Shown here: in pieces, positions 2,655 to 30,594 of the stretch
Numbering within the stretch: position 1 is the stretch's first letter
How the letters are laid out: every line of letters begins with the position of its first letter
Source of the DNA: an uncultured Eubacteriales bacterium
Lineage (GTDB): Bacteria; Bacillota; Clostridia; Lachnospirales; Lachnospiraceae
Direction: 5' to 3'
NCBI GenBank assembly: GCA_902772745.1
Contig: CACYBV010000037.1
Span: forward strand, 1 to 30,594
Length of the DNA: 30,594 nucleotides
The notes under the pieces: model-generated
Told to the model about the DNA's origin: nothing
The model's database searches: none
Seen by the model: only the letters and a program-made list of their open reading frames with translations
Position numbers and translations under genes: made by a program

Positions 2655-4004
2655 GTGACAGCGGCAAGAGAGAGAAGCTTACGGATTCTCAGGATTATAA
2701 CAGCGGTGCTTCTGTGCCTTTACTTTTTTTCGGCATCGGTGTTTATCCTGAAGATCCGCGGCCGCTTCCCCTATCAGTTTCTGGGGGCCGGCGCGGGATT
2801 ATCCGTACTGATTCTTTTCATTGTGAACAGAAAATTCGAACGGACAGACTGGCTCCTCACGCTGGTCTTTCTGTCGTTCATTCTGTCTGCAATTTCCGCC
2901 GAGATCAATCAGATGCCGGAAGCCTACCTGAAGCTTTCGCGATCCTCCGCACTGATGGCGGTCCCGCTTTATTTCGCGGCGGCTTATCTCGGCGCGGACA
3001 TGAAGCGCTCCGTAAAGCTCATGGAACTTTTGAAACTCGTGCTGAAGGGCATTACGCTCCTGCAGGTCCTGTGGATTCTTCTGCAGTTTTTGCTGTATCG
3101 GCTGTTTAAAATCGACATCAACCAGGTGATTTTCCATGACATCCTGCATCAGGAAGGGCTTGTGAGTTTCTACCGCGAGAGATTCTATCCGGCGGGCTTT
3201 ACCTGGCACGGCGGATCGATTGCACCGCTCCTCGTACTGGCCTTTGTGCTTTTCAAAAACCCGGTCATCCGGCTCGTGGTGCTTGCCGAATCCTTCCTTG
3301 TGGGAAGCTCCACGGCGATCGTGGGCGTGCTTGCGGCACTTTTCCTGACGATTCTTCTCGGACTGATCCGAAGAGAGTACACGATCGCGAGGATCCGCGC
3401 TTTCTTCCGGAAAAAGAACATCTGGAAAATGGTGCTCGGCGCAGTCCTTATCGCCGTCTTTGTCTTTGCTTTCATACGAATGAATCTCTGGGCGGTCGTG
3501 AAGGGCCGGATGCTCTACCTCATGCTTCGGATGAAGAATACGGACTTTGACGGCAGCACGCAGATTCATATCCGCTATTTTACCGATTTCCCGCAGATCT
3601 TCAGAAACAGCAGCTGGACGGAGCGGATCTTCGGATACGGCAATTACTCATCCGGTTACCCCTTCCAGATCTACTTCGGGCAGTACAAATGGATGGAGAC
3701 CTTCGTCGCTGAATGCGATTTCATCAATATCCTCGTGAGCCGCGGCATTTACGGCTTCCTGGTGTATTATATTTTCCTCGGAATCCTTGCTGTGCGGGGA
3801 CTGAAAAAGGACAGCCGGTATTTTATATTTACCATAGCGGTCGTACTTCAGGGAGCGGGCTATAACGTACAGTGGCAGTATATTTTCATGACGGAAATCC
3901 TGATGTACCTTTCTCTTCAGGCGGGCAGAAATTTCTTTGAGGAAAAGTCTGTGGAAGGACAGCAGAAAATGCCGGCGCTTCTCAGGCGGTTCGGGAACCT
4001 TTGA
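2655..4004 (+). CDS. Polytopic membrane protein, O-antigen polymerase/ligase (Wzy-like) candidate
   Basis: About 10-11 hydrophobic segments. RFYPAGFTWHGG, GSSTAIVG, and a large loop ending IFGYG...ECDFINILVSRGIYG resemble Wzy_C-type proteins. GTG start. Confidence 0.5.
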   Translation: MTAARERSLRILRIITAVLLCLYFFSASVFILKIRGRFPYQFLGAGAGLSVLILFIVNRKFERTDWLLTLVFLSFILSAISAEINQMPEAYLKLSRSSALMAVPLYFAAAYLGADMKRSVKLMELLKLVLKGITLLQVLWILLQFLLYRLFKIDINQVIFHDILHQEGLVSFYRERFYPAGFTWHGGSIAPLLVLAFVLFKNPVIRLVVLAESFLVGSSTAIVGVLAALFLTILLGLIRREYTIARIRAFFRKKNIWKMVLGAVLIAVFVFAFIRMNLWAVVKGRMLYLMLRMKNTDFDGSTQIHIRYFTDFPQIFRNSSWTERIFGYGNYSSGYPFQIYFGQYKWMETFVAECDFINILVSRGIYGFLVYYIFLGILAVRGLKKDSRYFIFTIAVVLQGAGYNVQWQYIFMTEILMYLSLQAGRNFFEEKSVEGQQKMPALLRRFGNL

Positions 4005-5814: not shown

Positions 5815-5885
5815 GCAGGATTAGTACATTGGTAGTATGTCAGCTTCCCAAGCTGAAGAGGCGGGTTCGATTCCCGTATCCTGCT
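5815..5885 (+). tRNA. tRNA-Gly (anticodon CCC)
   Basis: Acceptor GCAGGAT/ATCCTGC, D stem GTAC/GTAT, anticodon arm TCAGC-TTCCCAA-GCTGA, T arm GCGGG-TTCGATT-CCCGT. Discriminator T; CCA not encoded. Confidence 0.95.
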
Positions 5886-8615: not shown

Positions 8616-8705
8616 CGGAACGGAATACCGGAAATCCGATCATTGCCGGGCTGAATGAATACCTTAACATGTGGGTCCGGGTTTTCATACCGGAGTAAAA
8701 AAAGA

Positions 8706-8734
8706 TTGCTGTTTTCGCATGAAGCTGATATAAT
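8706..8734 (+). promoter_or_regulatory. Putative sigma-A promoter for the NUDIX gene
   Basis: TTGCTG, 17 bp spacer, TATAAT (8729-8734), with extended -10 TG. Confidence 0.65.
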
Positions 8735-8840
8735 GATGTCAATAAAAGGACGCTCCGATACGGAAGAGGACAGGAAACCGCACGTAATCCGACGGCCTTC
8801 TCAGCTCCGGAGCGGAGAAATCAGGGGCAGAAAAAGGAGC

Positions 8841-9287
8841 ATGAAAACAGTCAGAGTTGCGGCGGCAGTCATACATGCATTAAACAGCCGCGGAGAAACG
8901 GTCATCTTTGCGACGCAGCGCGGCTACGGCGAATACAAGGACTGGTGGGAGTTCCCCGGAGGAAAGATCGAAGCATACGAGACGCCGGAACAGGCCTTAC
9001 GGCGGGAAATCCGCGAAGAACTGGATGCCGGAGTCACGGTCGAAAAGCTGCTGACGACAGTAGAATATGATTATCCGGCTTTTCATCTGTCGATGGATGT
9101 TTTCTGGTGCAGCCGGGGAGACGGGCAGCTGACGCTTTTGGAGCATGAGGCTGCGAGATGGCTGCCGATGGACAGCCTGCATGAAGTAAACTGGCTTCCG
9201 GCGGATATTCAGGTGCTGGATGCGATTGAGAAAGCGGGACGGGACAGGACCGATTCGGAGGAGATTCGGCAGAGAAAGCCGGACTGA
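8841..9287 (+). CDS. NUDIX hydrolase, MutT/NudG-like (d)NTP pyrophosphohydrolase
   Basis: ATQRGYG...WEFPGGKIEAYETPEQALRREIREEL Nudix box and WLPAD. ATG 8841 follows AAGGAG. Confidence 0.9.
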   Translation: MKTVRVAAAVIHALNSRGETVIFATQRGYGEYKDWWEFPGGKIEAYETPEQALRREIREELDAGVTVEKLLTTVEYDYPAFHLSMDVFWCSRGDGQLTLLEHEAARWLPMDSLHEVNWLPADIQVLDAIEKAGRDRTDSEEIRQRKPD

Positions 9288-9390
9288 TCAGAAAAAGAAA
9301 GATGATACGGTGAGAACGGAAGAAAGCTTCCGAAAAAAACCGTCAGAGATACACAAAGGATGATGAACTCGGAAAGTGAGGGAGAAATCA

Positions 9391-11139
9391 ATGAAGTTTT
9401 GTACAAATTGCGGAAAGCAGATCAGAGAGACGGCGGCGTTCTGCACTTTCTGTGGGCAGAGAACCGGGTTTATACGGCCGCAGCCGGGACCGGCTCCGCA
9501 GCCCGTGCCAATGCCGCAGCCCGTGCCAATGCCGCAGCCGGTACCAACACCGCAGCCGGCAGCAGCTCCCGAACCGGCACCAATGCCATGGCCGGGACAG
9601 GCGCCTCTTCAGGAACAGGTTTCCGAACCGGTGATGCAGACGAATCCGATCCCGGATCCGGCAGCGGCGCCGTGGCCGGCAGCTCCTGAACCGGCACCAA
9701 TGCCGCAGCCGGCACCAACACCGCAGCCGGAGACGCCATGGAAACCTGTGACGGCAGCGGTTTTGGATCAGGAGGAAATAATTCCGCAGCCGGTCCCGGT
9801 ACCGGAACCGAGTTGGGAAGAGAAGCCAAGCCAGGCTCTGAAGCCCCCGAAGGAGGACCTGCTCTCATTGGCAGATGATCCGGTGTGGGAACAGCCGATT
9901 CCGCAGCCGGATGTGCCGTTGTGGGAACAGCCGATCCCGCAGCCGGATGTGCCGATAAGGGGACAGGAAACTCCCCGGGCGGATGAACTTCTGCAGACTT
10001 ATGCTCCGATCCCGGATGATATTCCGCTGCCGCCGGCTCAGGAACCGCCGCTCGCACCGGAATTCCCGAATCTTCCGCCGCAGGGAGAAGCGGTGATGCA
10101 GAATGAACCGTTCCGTCCCTTCCCGCAGGAAGCGCCGCCGCAGCCCGGAATGCCCGGAATGCCGCAGCAGGGATCCTGGCAGGAAGCCCCGCCGCAGCCC
10201 GGAATGCCCGGAATGCCGCAGCGGGGAGCCTGGCAGGGAGACCCTCGGGAACAGCTTCCGCCTCCTCCGGTGCAGGAGATGACACCGCCGCCGTATACAG
10301 TCCCGGGTCCGACAGTGCAGCAGTCGTTCGGCCCGGCCCCTGTCAGCGAATCGAAAAAGAAGAAATCCGGCAGCAGCATTCTCCTTTTGTGCCTTCTCGC
10401 AGCTGTATTTTTACTCGGCCTTTGTGCGGAAATTTTCGCCAACATGCCGATCCGGGACCTTCTGTACAATCCGCTGAATATCCCGCAAAGCGAATTGAGA
10501 CGGATCGCCTATCTCCAGGTACTGCAGAGTTTCGGAATTGAAAGCATCCCGATCTATTCGGCGCCGTCGTTTCTGATGAATCTGATGGTTTACAGGGCGG
10601 GGAGCAGCACGGGCGCGGTTCTTCGCTGGATTCCGTACCTGATCCTGTTCTTTATTCCGGTCCTTACTGCGTTTTTCCGGAACAGGAAGGTTCAGAGCGT
10701 TCCGCTCTTCGTAAGCGGAGGCTTTACGCTTCTTGAGGGTATTGGAATTGTGCTCGCTTCGGAGCTGAGTCCTATCGGAGGGCGGATTCTGAATGCGTTT
10801 TATGCCGTTCCGTTTATTATGGAAGCGGTGATCGTCATTCTTCTTGCGGTTTCCTTCCTTGCGAAGAAGAAGCTTTTGTGCCTGATTTCGGGCATTCTGT
10901 CGGTACTTTTCGCAGTGGATTCGATCATGCTGACACCGGTGATCCTGAGGATTTCCAGGATGTATATGCCGGTGACTCTTGAAAACATCCTGCGTTCCTT
11001 CAGATGGGTGCTGTCCAATCCCCGCGCGCTTTACCTGGATGCGGGCGCCTCTTTCTGGCCGGTTTATAAAACCTTCGTCCTTGTAATGTATGCGCTCCTT
11101 GCGTTCTTTTCACTGAAAAAACTGAAAAAGGAGAGCTGA
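9391..11139 (+). CDS. Zinc-ribbon / Pro-Gln-rich linker / multi-TM membrane protein
   Basis: MKFCTNCGKQIRETAAFCTFCG (zinc_ribbon_2 pattern), about 300 aa Pro-rich region, then KKKK and about 6 hydrophobic segments. RBS GAGGGAG. Confidence 0.8.
   Translation: MKFCTNCGKQIRETAAFCTFCGQRTGFIRPQPGPAPQPVPMPQPVPMPQPVPTPQPAAAPEPAPMPWPGQAPLQEQVSEPVMQTNPIPDPAAAPWPAAPEPAPMPQPAPTPQPETPWKPVTAAVLDQEEIIPQPVPVPEPSWEEKPSQALKPPKEDLLSLADDPVWEQPIPQPDVPLWEQPIPQPDVPIRGQETPRADELLQTYAPIPDDIPLPPAQEPPLAPEFPNLPPQGEAVMQNEPFRPFPQEAPPQPGMPGMPQQGSWQEAPPQPGMPGMPQRGAWQGDPREQLPPPPVQEMTPPPYTVPGPTVQQSFGPAPVSESKKKKSGSSILLLCLLAAVFLLGLCAEIFANMPIRDLLYNPLNIPQSELRRIAYLQVLQSFGIESIPIYSAPSFLMNLMVYRAGSSTGAVLRWIPYLILFFIPVLTAFFRNRKVQSVPLFVSGGFTLLEGIGIVLASELSPIGGRILNAFYAVPFIMEAVIVILLAVSFLAKKKLLCLISGILSVLFAVDSIMLTPVILRISRMYMPVTLENILRSFRWVLSNPRALYLDAGASFWPVYKTFVLVMYALLAFFSLKKLKKES
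9496..10232 (+). repeat. In-frame tandem repeats in the Pro-rich linker
   Basis: 18 bp unit CCGCAGCCCGTGCCAATG twice plus degenerate copies (9496-9549). 36 bp period WEQPIPQPDVP twice (9885, 9921). 54 bp period QEAPPQPGMPGMPQxGxW twice (10125, 10179). Confidence 0.9.
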
Positions 11140-16960: not shown

Positions 16961-18760
16961 TCATGAAGTTTCTTTTTCAAGCTTCCCGAAATACAGGCGG
17001 TGGGCTTCACCGTAAATCCGGTTGAAGTTTTCGTCCCGCCCCTGGTGCAGGGAAGAAATGTAGCTGTGCTCCTGCTCGGCGAGCTCCGGATGTATTCTCG
17101 CCATCGTGGAGACGCCGATATTGCTGCAGATATCGGAAATCCGCTCGATATCCGACAGGAGGTTCAGGAAAATACTGTCGACAATAACGGTGCATTCGCC
17201 GCTTGCAAGCCGTTTCAGGTGGTTTTCCCGAAGCGCGTTCACGAGGTCATCGACGACTTCCTCCAAAGGCTCGATCGAGCGTGCAGCCTGTTCGTCGCGC
17301 TTCTCGAAGGAACGGTGCGCGAGATCCAGGACCTCCGCGATCAGTTCACGGATCACTTCGAGCTCCCGTTTCGCGCTTTCGGAGAAGCTGACGCTGTTTT
17401 TCTGGAGTCCCTGTGCGGCTTCGGAAATATTGACCGCATGATCGCCGAGACGCTCGAATTCCGAGGTGATGCGGTAGTATTCGTTCATGATCCTCAGGTG
17501 ATCGTCGGACTTGATCGTTGAGCTTAAGCCCACGAGATAGTTGCAGATCCTGTCCGCGAAAATATCGATCCGGTCTTCTTCCTCATTGATTTCCGAAAAC
17601 GCTTTTTCGTCGTATTTCGAAAGCAGCGCCCAGGCGCGGTGGATGTTTTCGCGTGCCGCGTTATACATCGTAAGAAGTGCATCGTAGCAGCTGTTGAATG
17701 CAATCGCGGGCGTGCTGTAGAACTGCGTGTTGAGTCCTGCGAGCTTGTCCGCATATTTTTCGTCCTGCTGTATTCTGCTGCGCACGATGATCTGTGAAAG
17801 CTTTTCGAACCGGAGAACGACGGGAAGCAGCAGCAGTGCGCTCGCGAGATTGAAGACGGTGTTGGTATTGGCAATTCCGCCCGAAAAGATCGGTTTGAGC
17901 CAGATGCCGTCGAGGACGCCGAAGGCATGAAGCAGGGAAACCCCGAGAAGCGCAAGCGCGGACTTTCCGAGGTTGAACAGGATATTGATGATGCCGACAC
18001 GTTTTGCATCCGGCTTCGCTCCGATCCAGCAGACAATTGCGGTTGTGACGCAGTCACCGAGATATATTCCGACGAGAACCGCATAAATTCCCTTAAAGGT
18101 CAGCTGACCGGTTGTCGAGAAGGTCTGCAGGATACCCACAGCGGCACTCGAACTCTGGAGCACGAATGCAACGGCGGCTCCGCTCAGATATCCGATGACG
18201 GGGCTGTCGTCCAGATTGGCGAACAGAGAAAGAAACGCAGGGGATTCGGTCAGGGAATTTACGGCATTGGTCATATTCAGAAGTCCGGAGAAGAGAATTC
18301 CGAAGCCGACGGCGATACCGCCGATCTGTTCGGATTTTCGGATGTGGATGAACATGATCAGGATGACACCGATAATCAGTGCAGCAGGCGCAAGGGTGGA
18401 AGGTTTAAAGATCTGAAGCCAGGCGACTTTGGATTCGTTGAGGTCCAGAAGACGGATAATCTGGCCGGTTACTGTGGTTCCGACATTGGCGCCGACGATG
18501 ATGCCGATGGACTGCCTGAGTGAGATGATGCCGGCGGCCACGAGACCGGAAGTGATGACGATTGTAGCCGTCGAAGACTGGATCACCGCCGTCACTAAAA
18601 GCCCCAGTAAAAATGCTTTGAATATGTTGTTTGTAGCCTTCTCGATTATTTTTTTCAGCGCGCCCGAAGAACTCTCTTTCAGCGTGCCCGACATGAGCCG
18701 CATTCCGTATAAGAACATGGCCAGTCCGCCCAGAAGGCTGATAAAACCGAATATATCCAT
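16961..18760 (-). CDS. Na+/phosphate cotransporter family protein with C-terminal PhoU-like domains
   Basis: GGLAMFLYGM, duplicated QSSTAT/QSSSAA motifs, GANVGTTVT, GIYLGDCVT, and PhoU-like EFERLGDHAVNI and DIERISDICSNI. Start placed at MDIFGF (18760), downstream of the promoter. Confidence 0.9.
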   Translation of the reverse strand: MDIFGFISLLGGLAMFLYGMRLMSGTLKESSSGALKKIIEKATNNIFKAFLLGLLVTAVIQSSTATIVITSGLVAAGIISLRQSIGIIVGANVGTTVTGQIIRLLDLNESKVAWLQIFKPSTLAPAALIIGVILIMFIHIRKSEQIGGIAVGFGILFSGLLNMTNAVNSLTESPAFLSLFANLDDSPVIGYLSGAAVAFVLQSSSAAVGILQTFSTTGQLTFKGIYAVLVGIYLGDCVTTAIVCWIGAKPDAKRVGIINILFNLGKSALALLGVSLLHAFGVLDGIWLKPIFSGGIANTNTVFNLASALLLLPVVLRFEKLSQIIVRSRIQQDEKYADKLAGLNTQFYSTPAIAFNSCYDALLTMYNAARENIHRAWALLSKYDEKAFSEINEEEDRIDIFADRICNYLVGLSSTIKSDDHLRIMNEYYRITSEFERLGDHAVNISEAAQGLQKNSVSFSESAKRELEVIRELIAEVLDLAHRSFEKRDEQAARSIEPLEEVVDDLVNALRENHLKRLASGECTVIVDSIFLNLLSDIERISDICSNIGVSTMARIHPELAEQEHSYISSLHQGRDENFNRIYGEAHRLYFGKLEKETS

Positions 18761-18800
18761 TTGCGTAAAAACGCTCCCCGTACATTTGATAAACAAATTC

Positions 18801-18829
18801 ATTATAATTGATCTTTTTACAATTTGCAA
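18801..18829 (-). promoter_or_regulatory. Sigma-A promoter for the Na/Pi transporter
   Basis: Minus strand TTGCAA (18829-18824), 17 bp spacer, TATAAT (18806-18801). Confidence 0.7.
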
Positions 18830-18865
18830 CTGTGAAAAATCCGAGAACTTGTGTCCTTCCCGCGC

Positions 18866-18894
18866 TTGTCTTTTCGTGCATTTCCATGTATAAT
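18866..18894 (+). promoter_or_regulatory. Sigma-A promoter for the deaminase-fold gene
   Basis: TTGTCT, 17 bp spacer, TATAAT (18889-18894). Confidence 0.65.
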
Positions 18895-19000
18895 GAAGCC
18901 GGGACGGGAGGCCGGTCCTTTTGTGTGCGGTTTTGTGAACGCACGGGATACAGGGCTCCTGCAGACACCTTTTTCAGAATTAAACGTGCGGAGGAATCGG

Positions 19001-21439
19001 ATGGCGTATTTCGGAAGCTTTTCCCTGGATCAGGAGAAGGATATCATCGTGGACCTGGATCTTTCGGCCGGGCTGATGTCCTATGTGCTCCGGACGCCGA
19101 ATCACGGATCGGGAAACCTGATCACGAACCTTTCGCGGATGTGCGGACTGCCGCTGTCGATGGACGAACAGGGGCTTTTTGTGATCCGCGGAACCGTTCC
19201 CTGCTACATTGATGACCGAAACCGGATGGTTTATGTATTCCGGCTCCGGGACACGAAAGCCGCGAACATCTATCCGGACGGAACCATCGAACGGAAGGCC
19301 TCAATCCCCGCGATTTCCAAGACCCTGATGTCACAGACCAAGGATTACCGGCTCGATTTCAAGAAAACCGTCGTCAAGACCTACATTCTCTCGGAATGCA
19401 AATTTCGGACCGACCTGCACACGCATATGAACGCGAACCTCTCGCCGGACGTGCTGATCGCGCTCGGGATCCGGCATGAAATCCGTTATCCGCTGTATTA
19501 TATAAAAAAGCTGGGGCTGAAACTCTCGGAAAAGCAGCAGGAAACGCTTCTCCGGCGGCGGAAGGAACAGGAGGAAAAATACCGTGACTGCGGACTTGAA
19601 GGAAAGTACCTCGACCGCAGGATCGACGACAATACCTTCATCAATTTTGCCGACCTGATCCTGAAAAACCTCGAAAATGCCGCTGAAAACATTCCGAAGA
19701 TCCGGGCTTCCCTTTCCGTGATGAAGGACGGACAGGCGGTTTTTACGAATCTTGAAAAAGTATACCTTTACCGCTATGTTTTTACGAAAGGCGAAAAATC
19801 AGCGCATCCCGTCGTCCTTTCGGGGATCGAATCGATCCCGGACCCGGATATCGCACAGGCGCTCCGCAGGATGATGCTGGACATGCACAGCCCGGAATAT
19901 GCGGGAAATACGCTGTTCCAGAACAAACTCCTGTGGATCGCGCGCGGCTATAAAGACAAGGGCATCCGCTATGCGGAGATTTCCGACACTTCGCTTCTAA
20001 AACCCGGCGAATCGTTCCGGGTGCTTTCGGAAATCCACGAAGTCATGCCCAAAATAATGCGGGAAACCGGCGTAATGCTCCGCTTCCTTGCGGCTTTCCG
20101 AAGGATTCCCCTGACGATCGTCAGAGACCGGATCCTGCAGGACGACCGGTCGGAAAGCCTGCGGATGCTCCGGGTCATCTCGGGGGATCCCTATGTCGCG
20201 GGGACCGATATCGTCGGCGAGGAAATCAACGACATCCGTGAACTTTCGCCGCTGATTCAGGGCATTGTCCGGACCGCTGCGGACCAGCCGGGATTTGTCG
20301 TAAGGATTCACGCCGGTGAAAACGATTCCCTCCGTGACAATGTCCTGAACAGCATCCGCTGCGTGCGGGATTCGCTTCAGCCGGGACAGAAGATGCCGCA
20401 CCTTCGGATCGGGCACGGGCTCTATACCGCAAATCTCGATTCGCAGAAAGGAAAGCAGCTGATCCGCGAGCTGATCGAAAACCGGGTAATCCTGGAGTTC
20501 CAGATCACGTCAAACGTCCGTCTGAACAACCTGTCGGAGCTCACCCGTCATCCGCTGAAAAAGTACCTCCGGGCAGGCGTTATGTGCGTGCAGGGGACGG
20601 ACGGCGGCGCGCTGTACGGGACGGATTCTATCGACGAGGAGCTCGCGCTCGAGAAGATGCTCGATCTCACAAGGCCTGATCTGATGCGGATGCGGGAGAC
20701 GGAAGAACGGGTCCTGAAAGATTCTTTCGCCGCTTTTTATGAAAAAATGAGCGAATTCGACCGGCATGCGGGCGGGCTTCCCTGCAGCGGATATTATGAA
20801 AGAAAACTCCGGGAAAGCACAGACCTGGCACCGGCGGTTCCGAAAGAACAGGCGAAGAATGCTTCCGCCGAGGTGTTTTCAAGGGAAATCCGGGATCTCC
20901 CCGCGGGAAAGCTTCCGGTCGTCGTCCTCGGCGGTTCCTTCAACAACGACAGCCATCATACGGTGCTCCGGGAAGAGAACTGCGAGCTTCTCCGGGAACT
21001 TCTCATAAAAGGGGATCCTTCAAAAATCTTCTTTGTGATCGGACACCGGATTTCAGGTTATGAAAAATACCTGCTTTCGGAAAACCGCGGACGATTTGAA
21101 GTGTTTTCCTTTGTTCCGTCGGAAGTGACGAAAGCGGAAGAAAAGCGGCTGAAAAAAGCCGGTGTTCTGATCCGGGTATCGATTGAAGCTTCTGGACTCG
21201 GATTATATAAGAGCGTCACTTACGAGATTTTCAGGCGGCGCGAATCGGTGCTTCTTGCGCTTGACGGAAACTCCGCAGGCGCAAACATGATACAGGACGC
21301 GAAAAACGGTCATCGGGGCTGCAGGATTTTCATCAGCGGCCGCAGCCGGGCGCTTCAGAGAAAAGCGCAGTCCCTTGCGGGCTACGTGAAAGTGTTCACG
21401 GGAACGCAGGGCCTTGCGGAGGAAATTCTCGGAGAGTAA
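19001..21439 (+). CDS. Large adenosine/AMP-deaminase-fold metallohydrolase with N-terminal extension and SLOG-like C-terminal domain
   Basis: DLHTHMN (19412), RIHAGE (20306), RIGHG (20405), FQITSN and GTDGG (20594). ATG 19001 follows GGAGG. Confidence 0.8.
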   Translation: MAYFGSFSLDQEKDIIVDLDLSAGLMSYVLRTPNHGSGNLITNLSRMCGLPLSMDEQGLFVIRGTVPCYIDDRNRMVYVFRLRDTKAANIYPDGTIERKASIPAISKTLMSQTKDYRLDFKKTVVKTYILSECKFRTDLHTHMNANLSPDVLIALGIRHEIRYPLYYIKKLGLKLSEKQQETLLRRRKEQEEKYRDCGLEGKYLDRRIDDNTFINFADLILKNLENAAENIPKIRASLSVMKDGQAVFTNLEKVYLYRYVFTKGEKSAHPVVLSGIESIPDPDIAQALRRMMLDMHSPEYAGNTLFQNKLLWIARGYKDKGIRYAEISDTSLLKPGESFRVLSEIHEVMPKIMRETGVMLRFLAAFRRIPLTIVRDRILQDDRSESLRMLRVISGDPYVAGTDIVGEEINDIRELSPLIQGIVRTAADQPGFVVRIHAGENDSLRDNVLNSIRCVRDSLQPGQKMPHLRIGHGLYTANLDSQKGKQLIRELIENRVILEFQITSNVRLNNLSELTRHPLKKYLRAGVMCVQGTDGGALYGTDSIDEELALEKMLDLTRPDLMRMRETEERVLKDSFAAFYEKMSEFDRHAGGLPCSGYYERKLRESTDLAPAVPKEQAKNASAEVFSREIRDLPAGKLPVVVLGGSFNNDSHHTVLREENCELLRELLIKGDPSKIFFVIGHRISGYEKYLLSENRGRFEVFSFVPSEVTKAEEKRLKKAGVLIRVSIEASGLGLYKSVTYEIFRRRESVLLALDGNSAGANMIQDAKNGHRGCRIFISGRSRALQRKAQSLAGYVKVFTGTQGLAEEILGE

Positions 21440-22468: not shown

Positions 22469-22540
22469 CTGCGGGACAGTACGGGCGGAATCGGGCAGCG
22501 GACGGCTTTTCTGAAGGAATTATTTCAGGAGGAAGTGAAC

Positions 22541-24553
22541 ATGAAAAAACAGCGGATTCGCGCAGCGGTATTACTTGCGGTTTTTCTTCTCGGCGCATTT
22601 CTCTGTCTCATGATCGCGGGCCGGATCCAGCATGGATTCGGAACGGTGGAAATCACGGAAGGATATATCGAAGCGGATGATCGGGACGGAAAGGAAATCG
22701 GACAGATCCGCTACAAGCTGTATAAGCCCGCAGGCGTATCGGAAACCAATAAAGCTCCGGGTATCCTGCTTCTGCACGGCTACCAGAACGACCATGAAAC
22801 CTGCGCAGCCTATTCGATCGAGCTTGCGCGCCGCGGCTACGTGGTGCTCGCTATCGATGAGTACGGCCACGGTCTCACGACGGCGGGGCTTCGGTACCGC
22901 GGCTATGTCAATCACAAGGTGACCGTGAACTACGGCGAGGACAGCGAAGAAGCCGGTACATTCAAGACAACCGGCGGTCCGGTGCGCTACCGGATCATGA
23001 TGAATTTCTCGAACCTGAGTTTCTTTGATCCGCATTATTCTGCGGATCAGGACGGCAATTACCTGCTGGATTCTTCCTGCGGCGGCTGCATCGCATACCG
23101 GATCCTCGCGGATTATCCTTTTGTCGACAATACTAAACTCGGCCTCTCCGGCCATTCGATGGGCACCTGGTCCAGCTGGTCGGTCGCCGCAGCCTATTCC
23201 GGAACAGAGATCGAACCCAAAGCCACTGTGCTGCAGTGCGGCGAGCTGTTCACCGACGATGCCTACGATGTACAGAAGTATCATTTCAGCAATGTGCTTC
23301 TGCTGCAGGCAAAATGGGACGAATTCAGCTACTTCCGCGACTATGAAAAGAATGTCACGGATGAACTTCTGAAGTCGGACCTTCGGACAAACTTTCTGGG
23401 AACCGATGCCGGGAACGCGAAATGGGACACGACTTTCGGCGACTTTTCGGACGGATCTGCAAGAAGGATGGAGCTTCTCTATACGAACCACCGCCTGACG
23501 ACCCACAACAAAAAGGGTCTCGCGGCTGCGATCGACTGGTTTGATGCGGCAACCGGGCACACTTCCGCGATTGCGCCTGAAAAGCAGATCGCGATGGCAA
23601 AGGAATGGCTCGTATTCGCGGCGATGCTTTTTGTGATCGCGGCGATGATTCCGTGGATGAACCTGCTCCTTACGGTTCCGTTCTTCAAAAAAGTCATTCA
23701 GCCGCTTCCGAGTCCGTACAAGGCGAAGACAAAAGGCCCGTGGTGGAAGGGCGCCGTGATCACGATGCTGATCGCCGCGTCGACCTACCCCTTTATGACG
23801 CAGCTCGGGCACGGACTCCTGCCGCTTCCGGAAAATGTATTCCGTATGACGGTCGGAAACGGCTTTATCGCCTGGTACCTCCTGCTGATCCTGATCATGG
23901 TCGTTATGACTGCGGTGTCAAGGGTGCGCGGGAAGAAAAAGGGAACGCTTCAGACCTGGCACGACATGGGACTTGCGGCAGCGGAAAAGCCCGATAAAAT
24001 CAGCCTCGGCCTCTGCCTCCGTTCTGCGGTGCTGGTGCTTGCGACCGTGCTTCTGATGTACCTCTGCGTCGTTTTTTCGGAAGCGTTTTTCAAGCTGGAC
24101 CTTCGGTTTATCTGGCCCTTCTTCAAGAGATTCAACGGTGAACGGCTTCTGCAGTTTATGGTCTATATCCCGGTATTTGCGCTGTTCTTCATCCTGAACA
24201 ATTCCAAGATCATGGCATCTGCGAGAACGCACTGGACCTATGAACCGGGCTTCAAGGGATTTTTCCAGAACTGGTGGCGGAACGCGGTCATGATGGCCGG
24301 CGGGATTTTCATTATCATCCTCCTGGAGTATATTCCGTTCTTTCTCGGAATCGGCCCGGGCGCTGACCTTATGTTCGGATCCACCTTCGGCGGACCGTTT
24401 ATGTCGCTTCTCATTGTTTTCTTCCCGCAGGTTCTCGTGTTCAGCGTTCTCGGGACGATTATCTACCGGAAGACCGGAAATGTTTATACCGGCGCAATCC
24501 TGATCGCGGTGCTCGCCTCCTGGGTGGTCACCGGCGGTTCATCGATGCTGTAA
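22541..24553 (+). CDS. Alpha/beta hydrolase with N-terminal TM and multi-TM C-terminal domain
   Basis: LLHGYQN, RGYVVLAIDEYGHG and nucleophile elbow GHSMG, followed by about 8 hydrophobic segments. RBS AGGAGG; start is GTG 22535 or ATG 22541. Confidence 0.8.
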   Translation: MKKQRIRAAVLLAVFLLGAFLCLMIAGRIQHGFGTVEITEGYIEADDRDGKEIGQIRYKLYKPAGVSETNKAPGILLLHGYQNDHETCAAYSIELARRGYVVLAIDEYGHGLTTAGLRYRGYVNHKVTVNYGEDSEEAGTFKTTGGPVRYRIMMNFSNLSFFDPHYSADQDGNYLLDSSCGGCIAYRILADYPFVDNTKLGLSGHSMGTWSSWSVAAAYSGTEIEPKATVLQCGELFTDDAYDVQKYHFSNVLLLQAKWDEFSYFRDYEKNVTDELLKSDLRTNFLGTDAGNAKWDTTFGDFSDGSARRMELLYTNHRLTTHNKKGLAAAIDWFDAATGHTSAIAPEKQIAMAKEWLVFAAMLFVIAAMIPWMNLLLTVPFFKKVIQPLPSPYKAKTKGPWWKGAVITMLIAASTYPFMTQLGHGLLPLPENVFRMTVGNGFIAWYLLLILIMVVMTAVSRVRGKKKGTLQTWHDMGLAAAEKPDKISLGLCLRSAVLVLATVLLMYLCVVFSEAFFKLDLRFIWPFFKRFNGERLLQFMVYIPVFALFFILNNSKIMASARTHWTYEPGFKGFFQNWWRNAVMMAGGIFIIILLEYIPFFLGIGPGADLMFGSTFGGPFMSLLIVFFPQVLVFSVLGTIIYRKTGNVYTGAILIAVLASWVVTGGSSML

Positions 24554-24618: not shown

Positions 24619-25749
24619 ATGAAACAGACAGTTAAAATTTCCGGAAAAGAGCGGGGAAAAATCATTGTCCGGACCAGCGTGATCGGGATCCTTTCGAACC
24701 TGCTGCTTTCCGGATTCAAGGCGGCAGTGGGAATGCTTACGGGATCGATCGCGATCGCCCTCGACGCCGTCAACAACTTAAGCGATGCGCTGTCCTCGGT
24801 GATCACGATTATCGGGACCCGGCTTGCGGCGAAGAATCCGGACCGCGAGCATCCGCTCGGGCACGGACGATATGAGTATATTGCGGCAGAAATCATCTCC
24901 GCGGTCATTCTGTACGCCGGCATCACCTCCCTTGTGGAGTCCGTGAAGAAAATCATCACGCCGTCGGCGCCGGATTATTCGGCAGTTTCTCTTGTGATTG
25001 TCGGCGCGGCGGTTGCGGTCAAGATCGTTCTCGGGAGCTTTGTGAAAAAACAGGGCGTCCGCGTAAATTCGGACGCGCTCAGGGACTCCGGAAAAGACGC
25101 GCTGTTTGACGCGGTAATTTCCGCGACGACACTTCTTGCGGCGGGAATCTTCCTCGTTTTCGGTCTTTCCCTCGAGGCATGGCTCGGCGCGCTGATTTCG
25201 CTTTACATCATCTGGTCCGGTGTCGATATGTTCCGGGAGACGATGTCGAGAATTCTCGGCGAGCGTGTGGATACGGAGCTCTCCCGGGCGATCAAGGGAA
25301 CGATTACCGGTATTCCCGGGGTCAGCGGCGCCTATGACCTGATCCTGCACAGCTACGGGCCGGACAAATGGCAGGGCTCGGTGCATATCGAGGTCCCGGA
25401 TACCTGGACCGCGGAAGACATCGACCGGGTTTCGCGTCAGATTCAGGAACTCGTCTATGTGGAGCATCAGGTGATCCTGACCGGGATCGGCATCTACGCA
25501 AGAAACACTGTGGGCGGAGAAGCGGAAACAGCCCGGACCCGCATCACAGAGGCGGTCATGGCCGAAGACCAGGTCCTGCAGATTCATGGCTTTAACTTCA
25601 GCGAAGCGGAGAAGACGATCCGTTTCGATATCGTGCTGGATTTCTCCGCAGACCGGCAGGCGGTATCAGATCAGATTTTGAAAAAGGTGCAGGCGATGTA
25701 CCCGGATTACCGGATCCGGATTGTGGTCGATTCGGACATCAGCGACTGA
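24619..25749 (+). CDS. Cation diffusion facilitator transporter, MntE-like site, two C-terminal ZT_dimer-like domains
   Basis: GSIAIALDAVNNLSD, PDREHPLGHGRYEY, ALRDSGKDALFD and LILHSYGP. Confidence 0.9.
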   Translation: MKQTVKISGKERGKIIVRTSVIGILSNLLLSGFKAAVGMLTGSIAIALDAVNNLSDALSSVITIIGTRLAAKNPDREHPLGHGRYEYIAAEIISAVILYAGITSLVESVKKIITPSAPDYSAVSLVIVGAAVAVKIVLGSFVKKQGVRVNSDALRDSGKDALFDAVISATTLLAAGIFLVFGLSLEAWLGALISLYIIWSGVDMFRETMSRILGERVDTELSRAIKGTITGIPGVSGAYDLILHSYGPDKWQGSVHIEVPDTWTAEDIDRVSRQIQELVYVEHQVILTGIGIYARNTVGGEAETARTRITEAVMAEDQVLQIHGFNFSEAEKTIRFDIVLDFSADRQAVSDQILKKVQAMYPDYRIRIVVDSDISD

Positions 25750-25759
25750 CAGGGGATTT

Positions 25760-26233
25760 ATGCTGACGACACTTTGTTATATCGAGCAGGACGGGAAATA
25801 CCTGATGCTGCTTAGAAACCGTAAAAAGAAGGACATCAATAAAGGCAAATGGATCGGCGTCGGCGGACGCTTCAAAGAAGGAGAGACGCCCGAAGAGTGC
25901 CTCATACGGGAGGTCCGGGAAGAGACCGGGCTCACGCTCCTTTCGTGGCAGTTCCGGGGAGTCGTTACCTTTCGCCAGGATCTAGGAGAAACCGAGTATA
26001 TGCACCTGTTTACGGCAGACCGGTTCAGCGGGGAGCTTACGGACTGTGATGAGGGCGAACTTTCGTGGATAGCGAAGGAGGACATCTTTTCTCTGAACCT
26101 CTGGGAAGGGGACAGGGTGTTTTTAGAACCTCTGCTGTGCGGCGTTCCGTTTTTTACGGCCTCACTGAAGTACGAAGGGGAGCGGCTTTCGGAAAGCGAA
26201 ATACGGATTTATATTGACAGGCAGGACGGCTGA
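25760..26233 (+). CDS. NUDIX hydrolase, 8-oxo-dGTP diphosphatase-like
   Basis: MLTTLCYIE...YLMLLR...KWIGVGGRFKEGETPEECLIREVREETGL and CDEGELSW...LWEGD. Confidence 0.9.
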   Translation: MLTTLCYIEQDGKYLMLLRNRKKKDINKGKWIGVGGRFKEGETPEECLIREVREETGLTLLSWQFRGVVTFRQDLGETEYMHLFTADRFSGELTDCDEGELSWIAKEDIFSLNLWEGDRVFLEPLLCGVPFFTASLKYEGERLSESEIRIYIDRQDG

Positions 26234-26258
26234 AAGAAAGCCGTGTAAGGAGTGTTTT

Positions 26259-27026
26259 ATGGAAACGGTAAAGCTGATTGTGATCATTCTTGTAAGCCTT
26301 TTCGTGTTTACGGGCGGGATCCTGTTCCTTCTATGGTTTTTCCGGGACCGCTTTGTCCCGAAGGTGCCGGAGAGCGGACGGAATCCCGAAGAGGACCCGG
26401 AAGAAGCGGCGTATGCACCGTATGTTTCGGAACCCGTCCGGTCTTCAGAGGCACTAAACAGCCGTCCGGCCTATGCTTCGGCGCCTGCGGGGCCTGCGTA
26501 TACGCCGTATCAGCCGGATACCGGAGACTACGGTTACGGGGATGATGAGGACTATGACGATTATCCGGAAGAAAACATGGATTCTGAGCAGGATTATGAT
26601 GCATCTTCGTCAGCGGCGGATTCCGGGCCTTCTGCGGCGCATCTTTCGGACCTGCTCGACTGCATTTATCTTCCCGGAAGGCGGCTTTCCGAGTGCGGAA
26701 TTCCCGGCGATTATATTTCCGGGGATGGGACGGAAGTGCCTGTCGACGGCGATCTTTTCGGCGAATACGCATACGGCGGACTGACGCTTTCAGGGGACGG
26801 CTCCGATGACCCGACGATTGACAGTTTCTACATCATCGGATCGGGCCTGAGTTTTTCCGAGTACGGCGAGCGTTTCAGGGAACGCTTCGGCGAATCCGTA
26901 TCGGAAGGAGAGCAGGAGGGAGAAGACGGTTCGAAGACAGAATATGCCGGATTTTCGACGGATTTCGGGACGCTGTGGCTCAGTAAAGGCTCCGGAAACG
27001 ACTATGTGAATATTAATTTCACATAA
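26259..27026 (+). CDS. Hypothetical single-TM protein with acidic linker and small C-terminal domain
   Basis: RBS AAGGAG, an N-terminal hydrophobic helix, a D/E/Y/P-rich middle and about 110 aa of globular-looking C-terminus. Confidence 0.7.
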   Translation: METVKLIVIILVSLFVFTGGILFLLWFFRDRFVPKVPESGRNPEEDPEEAAYAPYVSEPVRSSEALNSRPAYASAPAGPAYTPYQPDTGDYGYGDDEDYDDYPEENMDSEQDYDASSSAADSGPSAAHLSDLLDCIYLPGRRLSECGIPGDYISGDGTEVPVDGDLFGEYAYGGLTLSGDGSDDPTIDSFYIIGSGLSFSEYGERFRERFGESVSEGEQEGEDGSKTEYAGFSTDFGTLWLSKGSGNDYVNINFT

Positions 27027-29932: not shown

Positions 29933-30594
29933 ATGAAAAACAGACGTTTCTTCCTGCTTTGCTCTTTCCTTTCGAACGTTCTGGTCTTTGTGATGGCTTT
30001 CTATGCGGTCGGAAGTTCGATCCGCTACCACGGCGGCGGTGAATTCAACGGAACCGGTTTCCGAACCTTCCGTTACTTTACGACGGAATCGAACATACTC
30101 GCGGGAATCGTATCGCTCCTTGCGGCCGGATTCACGCTTCCGGTGCTTCTTGGGAAAAGGGAACGTGTTCCGAAATTCGCGCTTGTTCTGAAATATGTCG
30201 GCTCCTGTGCGGTTGCGCTGACTTTCTTTGTGGTGCTCGCATTCCTGGGACTGATCTACGGCTACGGGATGATGTACCGCGGTGCGAGTTTCTACATGCA
30301 CGGAATCGTACCGATCCTCGCGATGGTTTCATGGATCGTGTTTGACCGGGGAGCGCATCTTAAGATACAGGCCTTTCTTTTCGGCCTGATTCCCGTCGTT
30401 CTGTACGGCGTGATGTATTTTGTCCAGGTCGTGCTGAGAGGACCTGTCCGGGGCGGATGGGAAGATTTCTATGCTTTCACCCGCGGCGGGAAATGGTGGC
30501 TGAGCCTGATGATCGTCTTTGCCGGTGCGGCAGTGCTGTGTCTTCTGCTGCTTTTTCTGCATAACCGCTGCGACCGGTCGGGCGCTGCCGTCCA
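29933..30594 (+). CDS. Pr6Pr-like integral membrane protein, partial (runs off the window end; absent from the ORF track)
   Basis: MKNRRFFLL...RYFTTESN...YMHGIVP...LYGVMY...DFYAF. The frame stays open to the window end, and the YFTxxSN/HxxxP pattern is present. Confidence 0.7.
   Translation, partial: MKNRRFFLLCSFLSNVLVFVMAFYAVGSSIRYHGGGEFNGTGFRTFRYFTTESNILAGIVSLLAAGFTLPVLLGKRERVPKFALVLKYVGSCAVALTFFVVLAFLGLIYGYGMMYRGASFYMHGIVPILAMVSWIVFDRGAHLKIQAFLFGLIPVVLYGVMYFVQVVLRGPVRGGWEDFYAFTRGGKWWLSLMIVFAGAAVLCLLLLFLHNRCDRSGAAV

Follow-up and report, generated by a model that had tools for sequence, protein, structure and literature searches.

The window analysed in this study, a 30,594-nt stretch of DNA from an uncultured member of the Lachnospiraceae (contig CACYBV010000037.1 of assembly GCA_902772745.1), carries on its forward strand a gene (19001..21439) coding for a protein of 812 amino acids plus stop, 100% identical to the database gene call P0002. 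As suggested by our comparative sequence and structure analysis, this protein, here referred to as ADA-SLOG, joins an N-terminal domain, an adenosine-deaminase (ADA) family barrel and a C-terminal SLOG domain in a single chain. The N-terminal domain (residues 1-134; 19001..19402), beta-rich with two helices, was delineated by alignment and by an AlphaFold2 (AF2) model. It is followed by an ADA-family TIM-barrel domain (residues ~135-600; 19403..20800), recognised by its PF00962 match, by a conservation alignment of 53 sequences of the protein and by a hidden Markov model (HMM) alignment to the ADA structure 6n9m. A linker with no conserved columns in the conservation map (residues ~601-621; 20801..20863) leads to the SLOG-fold domain (residues 622-812; 20864..21436), which was delineated by an alignment of 48 homologues with mutual identity below 75%, by AF2, and by structural comparison with Foldseek and VIA-align. 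The frame of the gene is open from a GTG at 18851, and the real start was placed at ATG 19001, because the database gene call and the conserved N-terminus of the homologues both begin there; a GGAGG ribosome-binding site lies immediately 5' of this codon.

The fold of the C-terminal domain was revealed by structure prediction only, since searches in Pfam, PADLOC and PDB sequences gave nothing meaningful. Residues 611-812 showed no Pfam match at E <= 10 and no PADLOC match, a scan of residues 611-812 and 1-140 returned no Pfam family and one sub-threshold match to Toprim_2 (E 0.06), and phmmer and profile searches of the domain against PDB sequences were likewise without a meaningful result. 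The AF2 model of residues 622-812 comprises seven beta-alpha units, with a predicted local distance difference test (pLDDT) score of 93.1 and a predicted template modelling (pTM) score of 0.90. Comparison of this model with the PDB by Foldseek yielded 29 matches at E <= 1e-3; TRPM4, the Moco carrier protein (MCP), DprA, ShosA and LOG stood at the head of the list, which also included YvdD and TM1055, and here, too, the leading matches all belong to SLOG. An independent all-against-all comparison by VIA-align placed TM1055 (1rcu) first (Z 14.3, root-mean-square deviation 2.8 A over 155 residues, 19% identity), followed at Z 12.6-9.5 by TT1887, MCP, DprA, TRPM2/5/7/8, LOG, PpnN-like proteins, the SLOG domain of ThsA, ShosA and another TRPM chain. 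The top 25 VIA-align matches, spanning Z 14.3 to 9.5, were SLOG members without exception. Because unrelated Rossmann-type folds, including those of glycosyltransferase type and YpsA (Z 8.7), score only Z 9.0 and below, the assignment lies well beyond chance, and the modelled C-terminal domain of the 812-aa protein is confirmed as a SLOG fold. A preliminary description of this DNA had assigned the last ~175 amino acids (20903-21439) to a SLOG/LOG-like domain from the letters of the sequence, and AF2, Foldseek and VIA-align all agree with it in placing residues 622-812 in SLOG. Positions 20903-21439 correspond to the last 178 codons of the open reading frame (ORF), and the conserved domain begins slightly upstream, at residue 622 (nt 20864). 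The strands picked out there by eye coincide with AF2 strands (LPVVVL with beta1, IFFVIG with beta2, EVFSF with beta3, SVLLA with beta5 and CRIFIS with beta6), beta4 (LIRV) and beta7 (VKVF) having been overlooked.

Among the 53 aligned sequences, the residues G644, G645, S646, G681, E688, Y736, K737, F744, D755, G756 and A767 of the SLOG part are invariant, and at least 90% of the sequences keep T654, E742, R746/R747, N757, S758, N762, Q765 and N769. The invariant G644, G645, S646 and G681 are located directly after beta1 and beta2 of the AF2 model. Four motifs of the domain, placed on the forward strand by alignment, are invariant or nearly so across phyla: the GGS loop (20930-20938), GH..GYE (21041-21064), the helix YKS..YEIF.RR (21206-21241) and DGNS..N..Q.A.N, with DGNSAGAN at 21263-21286. 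Even the most divergent relatives, which are AT-rich, retain a core consisting of GGS, GH, G.E, YK, D755 and N762. Where the function of a SLOG domain is known, it binds ribose-phosphate ligands or nucleotides, examples being LOG, PpnN, ThsA (3'cADPR) and TRPM2/4. The SLOG domain of the present protein probably binds a ribose-phosphate-containing ligand as well, via the Gly-rich loops after beta1 and beta2 and the conserved polar pocket.

Members of the SLOG superfamily can also be enzymes: LOG is a cytokinin-riboside 5'-monophosphate phosphoribohydrolase and PpnN a nucleotide 5'-monophosphate nucleosidase. ADA-SLOG might correspondingly be a bifunctional two-step enzyme, whose SLOG domain acts as a divergent N-ribohydrolase or phosphoribohydrolase and whose ADA domain deaminates the substrate or the product, e.g., in a path from AMP via IMP to hypoxanthine and ribose-5-phosphate. 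The presence of LOG, PpnN-like and TM1055-type proteins among the closest structural neighbours, the many invariant charged and polar residues in the SLOG pocket and an obligate fusion that would suit substrate channelling are consistent with such an enzyme. However, the LOG signatures are absent from the domain. With positions equated by reference to the strands and without superposition, the place of PGGxGTxxE reads DGNSAGAN[M/L/T] in the 48-sequence alignment, with M, L or T where the catalytic Glu would stand, and the place of GGGxxGxM reads GH..GYE (G-H-x-x-x-G-Y-E). Both motifs are retained in genuine LOG proteins of the same genus. PF03641, the LOG family of Pfam, found no match in residues 611-812 at E <= 10, and hhalign of the SLOG-domain profile against an alignment of the LOG proteins from the same genus gave a probability of 1.4%. 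Since neither Pfam nor the LOG profile matches and the LOG catalytic motif is degenerate, the domain is, at the level of sequence, a new SLOG family, and it more probably serves binding than catalysis of the LOG kind. The degeneracy of PGGxGTxxE and the preference for sensing over catalysis had both been put forward in the preliminary description; the 48 sequences, none of them with a Glu at the catalytic position, uphold the former, and together with the miss of the LOG profile the degenerate motif favours binding over LOG-type catalysis.

The distribution of LOG genes was considered as a further lead. In the source genus (17 genomes), the fusion occurred in 7 genomes, LOG (PF03641) in 5, both in 0 and neither in 5, a complementary pattern that could mean replacement of LOG by ADA-SLOG. 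This lead was dropped, because related genomes cannot be counted as independent, LOG genes are in any case uncommon across the order, and 3/10 carriers of the fusion from other lineages also encode LOG. The failure of the pattern beyond the genus also counts against the two-step enzyme, which we regard as distinctly unlikely.

The enzymatic part of the protein is assigned by PF00962 (A_deaminase), the sole Pfam family on it, which covers residues 320-582 and scores 60.5 bits (cut-off 27). H140 and H142 of the HxH motif (HTH, 19418-19426), H437 and E440 of HAGE (20309-20320), H472 of RIGHG (20405-20419) and D534 of TDGG (20597-20608) are invariant in the 53 sequences, and in the HMM alignment these motifs match those of the E. 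coli-type ADA 6n9m. All metal ligands and catalytic residues are kept, and on this ground the domain is predicted to be catalytically complete, which bears out the fusion of SLOG to an adenosine-deaminase fold proposed in the preliminary description. The residue aligned with Asp296 of ADA is Gly535 throughout the 53 sequences (TDGG vs TDDP), and the position of Asp19 is occupied by Asn144; the roles are those of mouse ADA residues, and the Asp-Asp pair of TDDP contacts the purine. The Gly at the Asp296 position suggests altered base recognition. Furthermore, the stretch from the HxH strand to Pfam profile position 84 measures ~180 residues, compared with ~70 in the profile, and the ~110 extra residues after beta1 of the barrel are highly conserved within the family.

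The NCBIfam equivalogs for ADA score far below their cut-offs on the protein (best TIGR01430, 47.1 bits vs 216.55), and a second PF00962 protein of 312 aa is encoded in the genome (L004:1171-2109), which retains SDD, i.e., the DD pair. In view of the equivalog score, this second protein and the change of Asp296 to Gly, the 812-aa protein is by sequence not an orthologue of the housekeeping Add; nor is it the sole ADA-family enzyme of the cell, since the 312-aa protein is also encoded. These observations bear on the possibility of an ordinary adenosine or adenine deaminase, in which the SLOG and N-terminal domains would have no function beyond folding, oligomerisation or localisation and would not bind a small-molecule signal. 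Such an enzyme would agree with the simple name 'adenosine deaminase' that sources give to the family, with the best PDB sequence matches, which are classical adenosine deaminases (Cad1, PDB 9c67, is a weak match), and with the housekeeping surroundings of the gene described below. It is nevertheless the explanation to which we give least credit: apart from the score under every equivalog cut-off, the invariant Gly and the other PF00962 protein, a scaffold would need far weaker conservation than the SLOG domain shows in its Gly-rich loops and polar pocket. The PADLOC model CARF_ADA gave a partial match (E 4.6e-7) through profile positions 339-560, which is its ADA part only.

Residues 1-134 are the best-conserved part of the protein, with a mean column identity of 64%. 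The AF2 model of this N-terminal domain is beta-rich (pLDDT 91.1, pTM 0.83), and the fold search gave no convincing PDB match (Foldseek best E 0.05, VIA-align best Z 4.2). Matches to the kinase N-lobe (Z 4.2) and to the nucleotide-binding domains of Legionella lpg1496 (E 0.05) were weak and scattered and were not accepted, and no CARF-like structural match was returned by Foldseek or VIA-align. The domain may have a fold not seen before or constitute a second site for a ligand, and it may offer a second regulatory or assembly surface to the protein.

Relatives of the protein are numerous. A word-indexed search recovered at least 5,636 proteins (90%-identity clusters) at E <= 0.001 among 8,000 candidates scored; the best 120 relatives are 808-853 aa long, are covered by 98-100% and are named 'adenosine deaminase' or 'hypothetical'. 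The SLOG-domain profile, searched against 1.84 billion representative proteins, gave 158 matches only. Ten long or divergent matches of this profile were scanned and proved to be ADA fusions of 770-1,010 aa or to be without a Pfam domain, and of three short divergent matches read, two have their start within the final part of the ADA domain, in the manner of truncated gene calls. Going by the inspected matches, most of the remaining ones being short and partial, this SLOG family seems to occur essentially only in the fusion with ADA. Since the inspected matches are either fusions with ADA or resemble pieces of such fusions, the two domains appear to be functionally tied. The most divergent SLOG relatives (P0213, P0219, P0225 and P0239) are Lys/Asn/Glu-rich, a composition pointing to AT-rich organisms, and carry long low-complexity tails; one of them, P0239 (261 aa), may be a SLOG protein without a fusion partner.

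Outside the source genus, the first sample, drawn from 8 further genera of the family and 16 further families of the order, was without the fusion (0/8 and 0/16); two matches at E ~5e-4 in this sample were ordinary ADA-family matches. An even sample of the class contained the fusion in 3/398 other genomes, so that its occurrence is patchy, at about 1% of the Clostridia covered. Scanning one genome per species revealed at least 537 encoding stretches, and at least 52 of the best 80 come from ruminant metagenome-assembled genomes (MAGs) by record title; among them, RGIG titles refer to sheep, goat, deer, yak, buffalo or cattle, and RUG records are taken as rumen MAGs. The lineages represented among these best 80 are Lachnospiraceae, Oscillospiraceae/Ruminococcaceae, Erysipelotrichaceae/Solobacterium, Christensenella and Atopobiaceae/Coriobacteriaceae. 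In a maximum-likelihood tree of 67 full-length proteins, all 21 Actinomycetota rows (Atopobiaceae/Coriobacteriaceae) grouped closely in a single clade that lies within the Bacillota rows, supported at 95-100% in the Shimodaira-Hasegawa-like approximate likelihood ratio test (SH-aLRT), and the Bacillota families were intermixed. This topology points to horizontal spread followed by vertical retention, the direction of transfer being inferred on a midpoint root. The gene would thus be retained vertically in some lineages and occasionally transferred among ruminant-gut anaerobes.

In the window, the gene lies between a divergently transcribed gene for a Na/Pi-cotransporter-PhoU protein and a gene for an ApbC/Mrp-type ATPase, and further out follow AraC, Tex, LysRS, GreA, Dus, HflX, CDF and NUDIX genes. 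A metabolic context was likewise found at three further ADA-SLOG loci. Synteny of the gene with its flanks extends to the closest relative, genome G008, at 77-79% nucleotide identity for both; in genus members without the gene, the flanking genes are on different contigs or far apart. A consensus scan placed a promoter-like, sigma-70-like site (TTGTCT-17 nt-TATAAT) at 18866..18894 of the forward strand, ~105 nt upstream of the ATG. Both hexamers are kept in G008, where the rest of the leader has diverged. No conserved leader was found among four genomes of the genus, and no riboswitch or other Rfam element matched positions 18600-19150; the sole Rfam match in the window is a tRNA gene at 5815-5885 (RF00005, 64 bits). 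As to the other genes of the window, neither of the two NUDIX hydrolase genes (8655-9287 and 25721-26233) adjoins the ADA-SLOG gene, and a 672-aa ORF two genes downstream (22535-24553) has a weak N-terminal match to the alpha/beta-hydrolase family Hydrolase_4 (E 1e-4, below cut-off) and is otherwise unassigned. The ORFs at 2655-4004, 26214-27026 and 29933-30592 (449, 270 and at least 220 aa) match no Pfam family at E <= 0.001, and the only assigned part of the 587-aa ORF at 9376-11139 is an N-terminal zinc-ribbon.

The surroundings of the gene are of importance for the role of its product in conflict with phages. As a stand-alone effector, ADA-SLOG would detect with its SLOG domain either a nucleotide derived from infection, like ThsA with 3'cADPR, or a shift in a metabolite, and the deaminase thus switched on would deplete ATP/dATP or flood the cell with ITP/dITP, leading to growth arrest as in Cad1 and RADAR. 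The architecture does parallel those of Cad1 (sensor and ADA) and ThsA (effector and SLOG; Z 9.6-9.8), the CARF_ADA model matches the ADA part, and a patchy distribution, combined with horizontal transfer between families of Bacillota and to Actinomycetota, would be expected of such a gene. The genomic evidence, however, runs the other way. No signal-producing partner, conserved neighbour or operon partner was found in 80 loci (the largest neighbour cluster occurs in 10 of them), and the strand orientation of the immediate neighbours is random. Among 146 flanking ORFs of 37 loci there was no enrichment of defence or mobile-element genes and no Pfam family present more than three times; PADLOC matches among them amounted essentially to one UvrD-type helicase and one RT-helicase, and no TIR/ThsB appeared in the Pfam and PADLOC tallies (top 25 families each). 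The neighbours in the window are housekeeping genes, and no cas genes are present among its annotated genes. Carriage by phages or prophages was rejected, as none of the 2.9 million viral contigs of IMG/VR contained a relative of the protein. The Atopobiaceae clade is tight and apparently vertical, and PADLOC returned neither an RdrB nor a ThsA match. The anti-phage framing of the preliminary description, which had drawn on RADAR and Thoeris, is not supported, given the lack of a conserved partner and of defence enrichment at these loci and of copies in IMG/VR, and we consider an anti-phage effector unlikely.

The reading that we favour, with a probability of about 0.5, is that of a ligand-regulated adenine-nucleotide deaminase with a physiological role. 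It is drawn by analogy: SLOG domains bind ribose-phosphate ligands, and the sensor-linked PF00962 enzymes Cad1 and KomA act on nucleotides. The central TIM barrel would be the enzyme, most likely catalysing hydrolytic deamination of an adenine nucleotide rather than of free adenosine, with AMP, ADP, ATP, or a deoxy or ADP-ribose-type derivative as candidate substrates. The ligand-bound SLOG domain would tune the deaminase allosterically, and the protein would contribute to the control of the adenylate/purine pool or to purine salvage. A physiological role is favoured over phage defence because the genomic context is chromosomal, partner-less and non-island and the Atopobiaceae clade is vertically retained. 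The two-step enzyme and a merely structural SLOG domain are less likely than this ligand-regulated deaminase.

Several considerations weigh against the ligand-regulated deaminase. Likeness of the predicted structure to SLOG folds is no proof of ligand binding, and the invariant S646, E688, K737 and D755, together with T654, N757 and N762 (>= 90%), could equally serve an unrecognised catalysis. Defence and conflict genes, too, typically show such a patchy distribution (7/17 genomes in the genus, 3/398 in the class) and such movement across phyla and families, and defence systems made up of one gene are known. With Gly in place of Asp296, the substrate could be something other than an ordinary adenine compound. 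A bolder and more tentative possibility is that of a purine-nucleotide deaminase of a new class, both single-chain and signal-gated. On this view, the SLOG domain, perhaps together with the new-fold N-terminal domain, would recognise a ribose-phosphate metabolite or an alarm nucleotide and in response turn on the deaminase, whose substrate would be ATP, AMP or some non-canonical adenine compound. The protein would then provide ruminant-gut anaerobes with a one-gene switch for the collapse of the adenylate pool, in stress and dormancy or in partner-less abortive infection; the altered base recognition that this would involve fits the invariant Gly.

As two of the three domains are invisible to Pfam, the current annotation misstates the probable function of the protein. 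Its concentration in Lachnospiraceae, Oscillospiraceae, Erysipelotrichaceae and Atopobiaceae of the rumen and ruminant gut implies that the family may matter for purine and nitrogen turnover or for the stress physiology of the rumen ecosystem. If the proposed regulation is true, SLOG would be the third type of sensor for ADA-family nucleotide deaminases, after CARF and the RADAR assembly, and an ADA-type deaminase would be a new type of effector for SLOG sensors, in a gene that needs no partner. Full-text literature searches, which did not cover the 2015 SLOG classification (Burroughs et al.), found no description of the ADA-SLOG architecture, in line with the preliminary description, which knew of no characterised protein with it.

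Compared with known systems, ADA-SLOG shares with the classical Add/ADA enzymes (6n9m, 3ewc) the TIM-barrel motifs HxH, HxxE, GHG and TD, but it is an 812-aa protein with ~110 extra barrel residues, Asn144 and Gly535, as against ~330 aa in the classical enzymes. It differs from RdrB of RADAR in that no RdrB model matches it (PADLOC, E <= 1) and its neighbours are not RdrA. LOG and PpnN (PF03641) and the TM1055-type proteins resemble its SLOG domain in fold and strand order, LOG proteins scoring Z 10.6-11.5, and have the Gly-rich loop after beta1 and the loop-helix after beta5 in the same places. LOG and PpnN, however, show no HMM or profile-profile similarity to the domain, do not share their catalytic motifs with it, and lack its fusion to a deaminase. 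The MHR1/2 region of TRPM channels is a SLOG module that binds ADP-ribose in TRPM2 and ATP in TRPM4. TRPM4 is the best Foldseek match of the domain (E 1.6e-5), and TRPM2, 5, 7 and 8 reach Z 12 over ~180 residues, but TRPM is a eukaryotic channel module with large insertions and 12-16% identity, and the common fold is no sure guide to the ligand. ThsA of Thoeris (SIR2-SLOG), which senses 3'cADPR, likewise has a C-terminal SLOG domain on a nucleotide-degrading enzyme domain; its structures (7uxs/7uxt) match the present domain at Z 9.6-9.8 over ~141-145 residues. The effector of ThsA is a SIR2 NADase and that of ADA-SLOG an ADA-family deaminase, PADLOC assigned no Thoeris match to the protein, and ThsA is not the nearest SLOG neighbour, TM1055, TT1887, MCP, DprA and TRPM all scoring higher. 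KomA, a PF00962 enzyme fused to or working with a sensor, acts on dAMP (bioRxiv 10.1101/2024.12.20.629578).

The best functional analogy is with Cad1, the CARF-fused adenosine deaminase of type III CRISPR, which converts ATP to ITP in a ligand-gated manner (PMC11645235). Cad1/CAAD (PMC11645235, PMC12669630) and ADA-SLOG both combine, in a single chain, a Rossmann-type nucleotide sensor, putative in the case of ADA-SLOG, with a PF00962 deaminase whose active site is intact. They differ in that the sensor of Cad1 is CARF and N-terminal and that of ADA-SLOG would be SLOG and C-terminal, and ADA-SLOG has an additional orphan N-terminal domain and the large barrel insertion. Cad1 is tied to type III CRISPR-cas, whereas ADA-SLOG is without CRISPR-cas in the window and without a conserved partner in the 80 loci. 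Sensor-fused ADA enzymes as such are already known from Cad1, and ADA-SLOG would be a further, unstudied one among these deaminases.

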